Of a stretch of 64,000 nt of DNA, positions 1,461-8,470 are shown in pieces. The position numbers and the translations under genes were made by a program. Position 1 is the first letter of the stretch. Each line of letters opens with the position of its first letter. Source of the stretch: an uncultured delta proteobacterium. GTDB taxonomy: Bacteria; Desulfobacterota; Binatia; Binatales; Binataceae. The stretch is from positions 32,001-96,000 of the forward strand of contig CAVQEQ010000002.1 in the NCBI GenBank assembly GCA_963711565.1, written 5' to 3'. The notes beneath the pieces are model-generated. The model was not told the DNA's origin. It ran no database searches and saw nothing but the letters and a program-made list of their open reading frames with translations.

Positions 1461-1490
1461 TTGACAGTAACTACGGAACTTCCGTAGTCT
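1461..1490 (+). promoter_or_regulatory. Sigma-70 promoter with embedded palindromic operator for the BrnT/HTH-helicase operon
   Basis: TTGACA (1461-1466), 18-bp spacer, TAGTCT (1485-1490). Palindrome ACTACGGAA-C-TTCCGTAGT (1470-1488) covers the spacer and -10 box. Confidence 0.75.
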
Positions 1491-1492
1491 AT

Positions 1493-1780
1493 TTGGTGTG
1501 CCCAGAATTCGAATGGGACGACAGCAAGGCCGCGAAAAATCTGCTGAAGCATGGAATCACGTTTGCTTTAGCGATTTCTGCGTTCCGCGACACCTTTGCG
1601 GTCGAGTATCCCGACGACCGGATGGACTATGGTGAAGACCGATTCATCCATATCGGTATGGCGGCAGGGCATTTATTGACAGTTGCTTTCACCGAACGGG
1701 CTGACAGCACCCGAATCATCTCCGCCCGTAGATCGACGAAGTATGAAGAAGAAATTTACCACAGCCAAAATCCGCGCTGA
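1493..1780 (+). CDS. brnT: BrnT-family (RelE-fold) ribonuclease toxin
   Basis: Family signature FEWDDSKAAKNLLKHGITF...DYGEDRFIHIG...TRIISARR. Start may be GTG at 1496, possibly leaderless. Confidence 0.9.
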   Translation: MVCPEFEWDDSKAAKNLLKHGITFALAISAFRDTFAVEYPDDRMDYGEDRFIHIGMAAGHLLTVAFTERADSTRIISARRSTKYEEEIYHSQNPR

Positions 1781-4700: not shown

Positions 4701-5297
4701 CTTCATGTACTCGCCAAGCTAGCAGCCCTTGACCACATGACGGGTGGACCTTTTGTGTCGCGGCTAAAAATTCGCGAAGAGTCGGTACCTTCCGGTCGTT
4801 TCCTCTTCGTATGCGAGCTCTGGGAAGCTATCGGTGCCCAGCGAGATACAAGATTGCGTGGCTTCGCTTGGGATTTGGAGCGCGGAACTTTAGCGTCCGA
4901 CGTGTCTGCCAACCTCATAAAGCTCTTGAGCCGAACTGCTGATTCATCATCACCACCCGATCCGATCGTCGCCATACATGAGGGACTCGCAGCCGTGGAC
5001 GAAGCCTCACGTGGCAGCCGGCTGGCAGAAATTGAGGATCTAAGGCAGCGGAACGAAGCAGTGATTGCCAGAAAACTCGCCAGTCTCGATGCATACCATC
5101 AGAACCGCCTTGCGAGAGTGGATGCTGAACTTCAGCAAGCGACAGACGAGCGAATCATTCGGATGAAGACTGCAGAACGCGCTCGGATCGAAAGCGACCA
5201 CGAGGAGAAGCGGCGCGAAATTGAAGCGGCCCGCAACGCCGACATCGCCAGTAAGCGAATCGCCGCCGGCGTGCTGGAAATCAACCATGGCAACTAA
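1743..5297 (+). CDS. Fusion of an XRE/HigA-like HTH antitoxin with a SNF2/RapA-like helicase
   Basis: N-terminus [45 protein letters not shown]. SF2 motifs [17 protein letters not shown], LSATP and [30 protein letters not shown]. C-terminal coiled coil. ATG at 1743 overlaps the toxin 3' end. Confidence 0.85.
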   Translation: [1184 protein letters not shown]

Positions 5298-8200
5298 TTA
5301 CGACAAGATTAGAGAGGAAAACATTCGGGGATACGGCGAATTTACTCACCATCTTGAGCTTCTCGGGCGACTGTATGCAGACCCCACTCACTTCATTTTC
5401 GAGCTTCTCCAAAACGCAGAGGACGCGGGGGCAAAAAAGGTTAAATTCTCTCTTTATCCGGACCGCTTGGAGTTCCTAAACGATGGCAGATCCTTTACGG
5501 AGGCAGATGTTCACGGAATCTGCGCTATCGGCAAGGGCACCAAAGCTCAAGACCTCACGCAAATCGGAAAGTTCGGGATTGGCTTTAAGTCGGTCTATGC
5601 GCACACCTCTAATCCGCAAATCTACTCAGGCTCGGAGCAGTTTCGTATCGAACACTACGTCCGACCCTATGCAGAGGACCGTCGCTCAGTGCCATCTCCC
5701 TGGTCGACACTCTTCGTTCTTCCATTTCATCAAGCATCGGTTTCTTATGCACAGATAGCAGCAAAGCTAGAACGCCTGGACACGACACCGCTCCTGTTTC
5801 TCAAGAGCCTTCGAGAAATCGAATGGTCGCTCGAAGGCGGACAATCCGGCCTGTTTATCCGCGAGGCCGAAGCTTGTGGTACCGGGCAATTAACCCGCAT
5901 CGTGGCCCAGAGGGGTAAAAAAGAGACAGACGAGGAATGGCTTCTTTTCGCGCGGCAATTGCCCCTAGACGCCTACCCACACGACAGCCTGCTTCCCGAG
6001 CACAAGAAGCTCCGGGTCGAGATCGGGTTTCTTGTCCGACGAAGCTCACCCGATTCCAAAATCACAATCACGCGTATTCCGTCATCGCCGCTGGTCGTGT
6101 TCTTTCCAACTGAGAAGCCCACAAATCTCGGTTTTCTCATTCAAGGTCCGTTTCGTACCACACCGACGCGAGAGAACGTTCCGCCGAATGATCCTTGGAA
6201 TGGAAAACTAGTCCAGGAAACAGCCGAACTTGCGGTGGACGCTCTGAATCGGTTACGCGATGTCGGTTTGCTATCGGTCAGTGCGCTGGAGGCACTTCCG
6301 ATTCACGCCGAAGCCTTCCCCGAAGGAAGCATGTTTCGTCCTATTTTTGACCGGGTCCGCGCGGCGCTCAAAGACGAGCGCCTATTGCCCAGCAACGACG
6401 AAACTTTCACTCCTGCCAAAGATGCCAAATTAGCGAGGGGCGGTGACCTGCGAGAGCTGCTGCCTGACGAGCAACTCCAAGACCTGTATGGTGGCGAACG
6501 CAAATGGAAATGGCTCTCCCATCAGATAACGAAAGATAGAACACCCGGTCTCTGCCAATACCTGACCGAAGAGCTAGCCATCGAAGAGATCGAACCTGAG
6601 ACGTTCGCGCGCAAACTAAACAAACCGTTTCTCGAGCGTCAGTCGGATGAGTGGATAGTTCGGTTCTACAGTTTTCTAAACGAGCATAAGGCTCTGTGGC
6701 GGTCATCCCCCTACGGTGGCGGACCGCTTCGAAATGAAGCGATCATACGACTTGATGACGACTCTCACGTCACACCCTTCCGTGACGGCAACACGCCGAA
6801 GGTGTACCTGCCGACGGCTGAAGGCAGCGACTTACCGACGGTCAAGGGAACGATCACGCAGAATCAAGACGCGGTGAACTTCTTACAAGCACTCGGCCTG
6901 AGAGAACCTGATCTTGTTGCTGAAGTTATCGAGCGAATTCTTCCAAAGTATGCCGAGGGGAAAACCATACCCGCCGATGAACACGCGCGTGACCTCAGGC
7001 GTGTCGTCGCCGCACTAAAGGCCGTTACGCGTGACCGTGCCGCCGCTCTTGTTGAAGCTGTTTTTGAATTTCCGTTCCTACACGCAAGGAACGCCGCTAC
7101 CGCCAGCATAGCGTTTAAGAAGCTCGGCGACACCGAATTCGAGACCGAGACGACAAGGCTCTTGTTCGAAGGCAATCCAGACATTTGGTTCGTCGATGAC
7201 GATTTTTCGAACGATGCGTTTGCCCACGTTGAAGCCTGGGGCATTGTCTCCACTCGAATTAGTCCTTGTGCAATCGGCGCGCAGGGAGATGTTTCGCTGC
7301 AGAACACATGGGGATCGCACAAGCGAGGATTGGGTGGGTTTGATGGTCGATGCGACATCACCGGGCTGGCTCATGCCCTGAAGACCATCACCACCGCAAA
7401 AGCGCGCTGCCTCTGGAACGAAATTCTCCCTGGACACAGTCGCCACATCCGTGGCGTCGTCGAGTCGTCCTCGCGGCAGGACTATCGCGATTCCGAGAAG
7501 ACGATCGAACTGTTGACTACCGGGCGATTCATCACGAAGTCTTCTTGGCTGCCCGGCCCTGACGGTAAGTTTTTTCAAGCTAGCGCTCTTACCTTGGATG
7601 AGTTGCCGGAGGACTTTATCCGGAACTCTGACCTGGCCAGATTTCTCGGCATGAAGCCGACCATACCTTCCAACCTCGACAAGGAGAGTCTGTTCCGAGC
7701 TGCAGGCTTGATGCCCGAGGCCGCCCGTTTCGCGAAAGAGAACACCGACCTGATCGAACGCCTCGCAAAACGCCCCGACCTGCTCGAACAGATCCGCGAA
7801 AAACTTGAAGAGAGCAGGGACAACCTTCAGCACGAAGCGAAGCCTCTGGACTATCGCGCCGAAATCGCCGAAACCTTTTCTCGCGAGGCTCGAAGAAGGA
7901 GCCGACGACACAGATGGTTCGGCTACAACTGGCCCGGTACCAAATCCCGAACGGCGGCGGCAGAAACTACAAGAAGAGATTCAAGCGGCGAAAGGACGAG
8001 AACCGAGGCTGGTCGAACGCTTCACAAGGGTACCGAGAAAAGTTTGGGAGTTGAAAAACGGCGCAGTTCGAGCGTTTCTAGAGGAGCAATACCACGGGCG
8101 CTGTCAAATCTGCGATTTCACGTTCCCCGAGCGTAGCGGGCGCCGATACTTCGAGGGAGTTTACCTAGTGTCGCGTACGCGAGCGCGCTGGATCGACCGC

Positions 8201-8470
8201 GCAGGCAACGTTCTTTGCCTCTGCGCAAATTGCTCCGCGAAGTTCGTCCATGGGGAGGTTCTTGCCGATGACCTCCTGGATCAGATTGACGGCTTTCGAC
8301 CGTCTAAAGAAGGTGGCCCGATCAGCCCGATGCTTCATATCGTCCTGTGTGGAGAATCCACAGATATCCGCTTCACCGAGCGTCACCTTTTGGACCTTCA
8401 GCAACTTGTAAAAGCAAACGGCAATCCAGCAGATCCTGAATTGATTGAGCCGGGGGAACGGCCATCCTGA
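5287..8470 (+). CDS. Sacsin-like GHKL (HATPase) protein with C-terminal HNH-like Zn-finger domain; apparent +1 frameshift near 7875-7890
   Basis: GHKL motifs HFIFELLQNAEDA, NDGRSF and IGKFGIGFKSVY. The 5287 frame degrades into R/S-rich sequence after ~7890, while the 7805..8470 frame continues EEGADD...YHGRCQIC...GNVLCLCANCSAKF. Confidence 0.75.

Follow-up and report, generated by a model that had tools for sequence, protein, structure and literature searches.

A candidate two-ATPase defence module whose SNF2-family helicase is fused to the antitoxin of a BrnT toxin operon on a Binataceae genomic island

Why should the antitoxin of a small toxin–antitoxin (TA) operon run on into a large helicase? 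The question is raised by a locus at positions 1461 to 8470 of the window, by which we mean the whole 64,000-nucleotide stretch analysed here (positions 32,001 to 96,000 of contig CAVQEQ010000002.1, assembly GCA_963711565.1, from an uncultured delta proteobacterium of the Binataceae). The locus holds three overlapping genes in the same orientation, as the initial annotation described: brnT (1496–1780), a gene in which a helix-turn-helix (HTH) antitoxin-type domain is fused to an SNF2 helicase (1743–5297), and a gene for a GHKL ATPase (5287–8470). On balance, our results lean towards a model in which a two-ATPase defence module captured a toxin-first TA operon, and with it a promoter, a start, autorepression and a passive addiction or abortive switch. 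By analogy with known systems, the SNF2 motor and the GHKL clamp likely defend against phages or plasmids; the pair would be a two-ATPase defence module because of its likeness to Tiamat and DrmD and because of its defence context. The new part is the recurrent fusion of an antitoxin to the helicase N terminus.

The TA part of the operon is well defined. BrnT, a RelE-fold RNase toxin of 94 amino acids read from a GTG start on the plus strand, matches Pfam family PF04365 with 95.7 bits against a cut-off of 34.5 (E = 2e-27) and PDB entry 7vd7 with E = 2e-9, and its ratio of nonsynonymous to synonymous substitution (dN/dS) in a comparison with the orthologous locus L005 is about 0.2. Its gene overlaps the fusion gene by 38 nt. 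Residues 1–118 of the fusion (1743–2096, plus strand) form the antitoxin-type domain, an Xre-type HTH with an N-terminal arm, which matches the stand-alone protein Atu1735 (PDB 2ppx) with E = 9e-30 and is also similar to HigA2; the Pfam HTH_3 match covers residues 68–105. Against L005, the HTH has a dN of 0.03 and a dS of 0.48 (dN/dS about 0.06), and the arm has a dN/dS of 0.19. Upstream lies a sigma-70-type promoter on the plus strand (1461–1490; TTGACA at 1461, an 18-nt spacer and TAGTCT), from which the transcript is likely leaderless. Between the −35 and −10 boxes, the perfect palindrome recognised in the initial annotation takes the form of a 9-1-9 inverted repeat at 1470–1488. A consensus promoter scan did not list the promoter at 1461, because its −10 box fits at only three of six positions. 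Loci L004 and L005 nevertheless retain the −35 box, a TAGTAT −10 box and a CTACGG..CCGTAG operator core, and the similarity of the window to both begins at the −35 box, which thus marks the left edge of the cassette. A source module exists as well: in L182, from the same phylum, a stand-alone HTH homologue directly follows brnT, and the promoter of this pair carries the related half-site CTACGG. The proposal that the TA pair provides autoregulation is therefore supported in that the pair supplies the promoter; autoregulation itself is what we infer from this arrangement.

A single open frame of 1184 codons (1743–5297) encodes HTH_3 followed by the Pfam domains SNF2 and Helicase_C. The 20-codon linker between them (2097–2156, plus strand) is open, of equal length and free of in-frame ATG, GTG and TTG codons in four lineages. 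We looked there for an internal start that could give a free helicase and found none, so that, to judge from the reading frames, the helicase would be made solely as the fusion. The linker is predicted to be disordered (predicted local distance difference test, pLDDT, below 50 at residues 118–133 of the structure model) and evolves fast (dN/dS 0.6 against L005), and it therefore implies no fixed contact between toxin–antitoxin complex and motor. The remainder (2157–5297, plus strand) is a RapA/DrmD-like SNF2 ATPase, identified from profiles, PDB matches, motifs and the model, with a beta-rich N-domain, intact Walker A (261), DEAH (379) and motif VI (769) sequences, and long C-terminal helices.

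The fusion is neither a read-through nor a sequencing artefact of one strain, an origin that we considered and rejected: it recurs in L004, L005, L133, L096 and L180, and with BrnT it spans three genera (one of them, L004, an unpublished genome) and metagenome contigs whose identity falls as low as 78%. The helicase dS against L133 is 1.0–1.5. The BrnT fusion is thus old, and its toxin and antitoxin are under purifying selection. Where brnT is no longer intact, the copies show decay. In L133, brnT is truncated at its 5' end and the GHKL gene is deleted and frameshifted; in L096, L117 and L163, brnT is absent and the helicase ends after its first domain. These data bear on another explanation, under which a nearby TA operon became fused to the helicase through a deletion that cost the helicase its own start, and the TA pair persists selfishly and is irrelevant to defence. 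We consider such a frozen accident improbable. It would account for fusions that are rare and varied, for the unfused sister P0007 and for the decay of several fused copies. However, the unit from the −35 box to the HNH-like end moves as one cassette between three genera and different sites, and it has lasted past a dS of 1. Moreover, an antitoxin that carries a motor of 1050 residues must alter the control of operator and toxin. If the link did prove irrelevant, the locus would still show plainly how a defence cassette can capture a promoter and an addiction unit.

The helicase overlaps its partner gene by 11 nt. From an ATG start at 5287, this gene encodes a Tiamat-like or sacsin-like GHKL ATPase and its middle region (5287–7893, plus strand), as seen in profiles and in a model of the L005 orthologue. 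It matches PF25794 (SACS) and NF047352; residues 27–562 match the PADLOC model of TmtA with 229 bits, the protein matches sacsin with E = 4e-20, and its PADLOC matches are to TmtA only (9 of 9 families). The catalytic motifs, ELLQNAEDA at 39 (with E39 and N43) and GKFGIGFKS at 94, are intact. At position 7893 (plus strand), an extra base splits the frame. The contig of X2 ends at this very base and is uninformative, and the three contigs that bridge it, those of X3, X7 and X1 (the last matching the window in all else), do without it, so that the break is likely an assembly error and a real pseudogene is unlikely. The L005 orthologue is one continuous frame of 1060 amino acids, and a fold search with its model (pLDDT 83.9) gave only chains of the Hsp90 family. 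We conclude that the operon is real and likely intact.

The end of the partner is less conventional. In the other frame (7895–8470, plus strand; open from 7805 to 8470), profile and alignment reveal a C-terminal HNH-like zinc finger, CxxC...YFE..Y...LCxxC, in which Tyr takes the place of the TagI His. A profile search matched this tail to McrA (6ghc) with E = 8e-9, and a Pfam scan of the tail returned no match and no NOV_C/DUF3883 PD-(D/E)xK nuclease. Among 69 aligned tails, the column of the TagI general-base His holds Tyr in 33, Glu in 12 and His in 7. As judged from the alignment, the HNH fold is degenerate and the usual catalytic His is missing. The description of the partner as sacsin-like GHKL–HNH therefore holds for the GHKL part and needs qualifying for the nuclease, and the suggested restriction complex is doubtful because only 7 of 69 tails have His at the general-base position. 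Partners vary elsewhere in the family. In seven Chloroflexota loci (L020, L021, L022, L024, L029, L035 and L039), they are about 400–430 amino acids long and keep the HNH-like end with no GHKL match, that of L022 being shorter or broken; these short forms suggest that the helicase contacts the C-terminal region of its partner. In L013, L058, L069 and L074, the GHKL part resembles that of the window clade (39–49%) and the HNH part is of a distant type (25–29%), hinting at domain exchange. In L067 (positions 1–2397), a second, divergent gene of the GHKL–HNH type lies directly upstream of the helicase, besides the one downstream.

Do the helicase and the GHKL protein belong together, and to what end? 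We fetched 79 genome loci with the helicase (the best 80 of 552 candidates). Downstream of it are 59 full GHKL–HNH partners, 8 with a cut GHKL part or another tail, 7 short HNH-only forms, 3 loci with no partner and 2 with no room, so that 74 of the 77 loci with downstream room have a partner gene next to the helicase; the co-occurrence in other genomes on which the annotation's reading depended is thus real. The pair occurs in Cyanobacteria, Chloroflexota, Actinomycetota, Planctomycetota, Proteobacteria and others, and its spread is patchy, with matches in 8 of 201 relatives and in none of 46 genomes of its own genus. Among 112 large neighbours from 38 loci, selected for complete flanks and for their spread, 45 have a PADLOC match (E up to 1e-10), in 29 of the 38 loci, compared with 2 of 18 host-gene controls, in line with the enrichment in defence islands that the annotation had named as a check. 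The core pair is widespread and common in defence neighbourhoods. Three plasmid records matched, none of them extending to the HTH part; a scan of viral contigs with a strict motif pattern gave no match, but as this pattern recovers only 16 of 91 known loci the result is uninformative. In L070 (9285–10012) and L072, the gene before the helicase looks by eye like a sigma factor of the extracytoplasmic function type, with no Pfam match, and the helicase has a helical N-terminal extension of about 60 residues that is possibly an anti-sigma-type partner.

Profile comparisons point in the same direction. Residues 142–1152 match PADLOC DrmD with 388 bits; this is the best PADLOC model and covers the whole helicase, although the score of 319.6 bits against NCBIfam DrmD lies under the cut-off of 610. 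The NCBIfam equivalogs of DISARM, BREX, Dpd, Zorya and RapA were each tried and rejected, all scoring under their cut-offs, and PDC-M23 is not among the best 25 of the 38 PADLOC families for the helicase. In keeping with the annotation, then, the PADLOC and NCBIfam comparisons gave no full match to a named system. An alternative is that the pair is not immune at all and that a RapA-like remodeller works with an Hsp90-like chaperone in DNA repair, transcription recycling or maintenance of the element. RapA is indeed the best PDB match of the helicase, the HNH fold is degenerate, and some Tiamat-like groups occur without defence context according to the available text of a recent preprint (bioRxiv 10.64898/2026.09.30.754977). 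We nonetheless regard a non-immune role as improbable in view of the patchy spread, the defence neighbours, the full-length match to the DrmD profile, the TmtA match, and the RNase and nuclease fusions.

These fusions are found at the helicase N terminus, which appears to be a slot for additional domains. Among the best 119 of 3319 homologues, most helicases are unfused and about 1040 amino acids long. A scan of 15 long or close homologues found HTH_3 in two, DUF2442 in two, HTH_37 in one, HNH in three, PLD-like domains in two and one large unassigned piece, and Swt1-HEPN exceeds the Pfam cut-off in 10 of the genome loci. When metagenomes were scanned with a motif, 81 of the 89 matches proved to be this helicase, with five HTH fusions (three identical) and three DUF2442 fusions. 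In L139, a DUF4160 gene overlaps the start of a DUF2442::helicase gene and a GHKL gene follows. The helicase of L032 carries an N-terminal antitoxin that we read by eye as being of the ribbon-helix-helix (RHH)/CopG type, with no Pfam match; the upstream gene overlaps the fusion, and its nearest named Atlas clusters, BrnT and DUF4258 (score 0.91), are a lead to its identity. Four unrelated antitoxin-type domains have thus entered the slot (Xre with BrnT, DUF2442 with DUF4160, RHH with a BrnT-like gene, and HTH_37), which implies at least four fusion events, a number to be taken as a lower bound. The toxin gene comes first and overlaps in all three antitoxin fusions with readable upstream DNA, an order in which simple adjacency can yield an antitoxin fusion. 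TA neighbours are common, since unfused ParE, PemK and TumE toxin genes lie directly upstream of some helicase copies.

We placed these domains on a FastTree phylogeny of 121 helicase cores, which includes every fourth unfused protein match and excludes rows shorter than 950 amino acids or lacking the Walker A pattern (the HEPN-bearing L074 is one of those excluded). One clade (support 1.0) has 28 members, 12 of them with HEPN; the other has 88 members, none with HEPN, and contains all 8 antitoxin fusions. P0007, at 74% identity the closest relative that lacks a fusion, branches as sister to the fused clade. This pattern invites a more active interpretation, in which BrnT would be an effector that the antitoxin delivers to the motor. 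Sensing by the GHKL protein, or a phage inhibitor that binds the motor, would remodel the fusion and free the toxin, and the antitoxin-bound toxin would stand in for the Swt1-HEPN of the sister clade. The occupation of one slot by HEPN in one clade and by four unrelated antitoxin-type domains in the other speaks for such a guard, as do two precedents: in ietHAS, mutation of an SNF2 helicase renders the TA toxic, as tested in the available part of that report (PMC13069673), and HEPN–helicase fusions have been proposed as PrrC-like backups, in the part available of another (PMC3710099). Yet the toxin is dispensable, given that 74 of the 88 members of the antitoxin-fusion clade carry nothing extra at the N terminus, and HEPN is missing from 16 of the 28 members of the sister clade. 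HNH, PLD and unassigned pieces have entered the slot too, and ParE, PemK and TumE remain unfused upstream of some copies. In three further phylum samples (1203 genomes), none of 22 matches had a recognisable antitoxin when the N-terminal translations were read by eye, the four unassigned extensions among them being judged only in this way. We therefore hold an active guard to be rather unlikely. The same doubt attaches to its general form, in which the N terminus is an interchangeable dock for RNases, one clade having fused Swt1-HEPN and the other, four times, an antitoxin, thereby converting a TA pair into a motor-gated effector whose toxin is kept by the helicase/GHKL sensor until phage detection or sabotage sets it free. 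If true, antitoxin fusion would be a general route that turns simple TA modules into effectors of large immune machines; a link that matters would wire a toxin to a sensor in one simple evolutionary step, which would agree with what is seen in ietHAS and in backups of the PrrC type. The mode of action of the core is open to direct test, because nature offers variants distinguished solely by what the helicase carries at its N terminus (nothing, HEPN, HNH or any of four antitoxins).

Returning to the capture of a TA operon by a defence module, we envisage the following mechanism. The HTH of the fusion would bind the palindrome and repress the operon, and the N-terminal arm would hold BrnT. A GHKL dimer could clamp foreign DNA or protein in its ATP cycle, whereupon the SNF2 motor would translocate and strip or block the clamped target, and the HNH fold might bind DNA or nick it weakly. 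Loss of the cassette, shut-off of synthesis by infection or destruction of the fusion would free BrnT to cut mRNA. The freed toxin would stabilise the cassette and could abort infection; release would be passive, and the core would work without the toxin. Several observations weigh against this model. The decay of toxin-less copies is seen in two lineages only, and the order of events could be either way; L004 retains brnT and yet its GHKL frame is split near a contig end. As the helicase could not be expressed without an open linker in any case, retention of the linker does not show that tethering matters. In most copies we see no conserved nuclease that is likely to work. Finally, the enrichment control is small, comprising 18 genes of one genome, and several of the PADLOC matches among neighbours are generic ATPases or housekeeping folds.

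The operon is carried by an island integrated at a tRNA gene, as initially annotated. The right end of this integrative and conjugative element (ICE) lies in the window, with a tyrosine integrase (11760–12962, minus strand; PF00589 and PF13356), a gene with an HTH_17 domain and, at 13120–13178 (plus strand), a 92%-identical copy of the 3' part of tRNA-Thr(CGT). ARAGORN reported no tRNA within the window; the copied part is at G000:C3:1568645-1568704, and the full gene lies 6 kb short of the end of contig C3. That this end joins the start of C2 is suggested by genes of conjugation type, recognised by eye at both ends. GC content is 54–59% up to 15 kb of the window and mostly 60–65% beyond. Past 8470, the open reading frames comprise a piece of a sigma-54-type activator (by eye), an ABATE/CGNR regulator and integrase genes. 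Two overlapping frames at 10367–11324 (minus strand), which may be one frameshifted gene, have no Pfam or PADLOC match and a weak Atlas lead to a uracil-DNA-glycosylase family (0.89). Divergent from the operon promoter is a gene for a 505-residue tetratricopeptide repeat protein (1–1395, minus strand; G000:C2:31878-33395) that neither the L004 nor the L005 upstream region shares. The island also carries a CBASS with HORMA (CapP-like peptidase, HORMA, HORMA2 and SMODS) and a complete Menshen NsnABC (G000:C2:6448-10808 and 25049-28369), as well as ArdC and Fic. To the left of the window, still on this island (G000:C2:11437-22434, L001/L002, minus strand), an operon with a C5 methylase encodes three proteins with no Pfam match (463, 226 and 513 amino acids), a 1737-residue AAA+ protein and an HhH-GPD glycosylase; it has weak PADLOC matches only and is a possible uncatalogued methylation-based defence system. 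The absence of a methyltransferase, claimed in the initial annotation, thus applies to the operon; on the island, the C5 methylase belongs to this other operon, about 11 kb to the left.

How, then, does the locus compare with known systems? DISARM class 1 comprises drmMI, drmA, drmB and drmC. The locus shares with it the DrmD model as the best PADLOC match over the whole helicase, and differs in that this helicase scores under the NCBIfam DrmD cut-off and none of those four genes is in the operon. In seven closely related cyanobacterial loci (L006–L012, about 15000–22200), DrmA- and DrmB-like genes follow the pair on the same strand with no methylase between, the Tiamat-like gene standing as if in the place of DrmMI; L034 has DrmA/B/C-like genes just upstream of the pair. 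Like BrnT type II TA operons, our locus has an over-cut-off PF04365 toxin first, an overlapping DNA-binding antitoxin and an operator in the promoter, but here the antitoxin runs on into a motor of 1050 residues. BrnT and gp49 are toxin-first families, and the canonical antitoxin BrnA is an RHH protein, according to the available part of a RelE/ParE survey (PMC11980606); here, the antitoxin is instead an Xre HTH. In the text available of that survey and of a TA survey (PMC2701414), the word helicase does not occur, and in CoCoNuT operons, as far as the accessible text goes (PMC11090510), BrnT-like genes lie upstream as separate genes. The accessible part of PMC12839542 mentions neither GHKL nor sacsin. 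Searches of the accessible literature, in listings and passages that leave most subscription papers and preprint supplements outside, gave no description of an antitoxin fused to an SNF2 helicase.

The closest relatives of the core are the Tiamat systems. Like TmtA, whose profile it matches, our partner has an N-terminal GHKL with catalytic Glu and Asn, and Tiamat requires a Glu equivalent to the one here (bioRxiv 10.64898/2026.09.30.754977, available text). Tiamat, however, is one gene with a PD-(D/E)xK/NOV_C nuclease, whereas our protein ends in an HNH-like tail and is nearly always paired with an SNF2 helicase. The same text describes a Type IV-A class of Tiamat-like proteins of more than 900 amino acids with a terminal HNH-like fold lacking catalytic residues. 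Our partner fits this class: it has the GHKL ATPase and a middle region of the Tiamat type, its HNH-like fold lacks the usual catalytic residues, and it is 1060 amino acids long in L005. The core pair is therefore not new. The IV-B neighbourhood of that preprint has an adjacent conserved helicase, often nuclease-fused, and no listed methylase; as far as its text goes, no helicase family name or antitoxin fusion is given, and the pair likely belongs there. The claim of an undescribed three-gene system thus gives way to a catalogued core with a lineage-specific TA add-on that most relatives lack. For the add-on, the nearest parallel is ietHAS (PMC13069673, available part), in which a DrmD-like SNF2 helicase is essential for defence. 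ietHAS has a protease toxin, an ATPase antitoxin, a separate helicase gene and no GHKL partner; what the two share is a TA pair joined to a DrmD-like SNF2 helicase, which in ietHAS shows antitoxin-like control.

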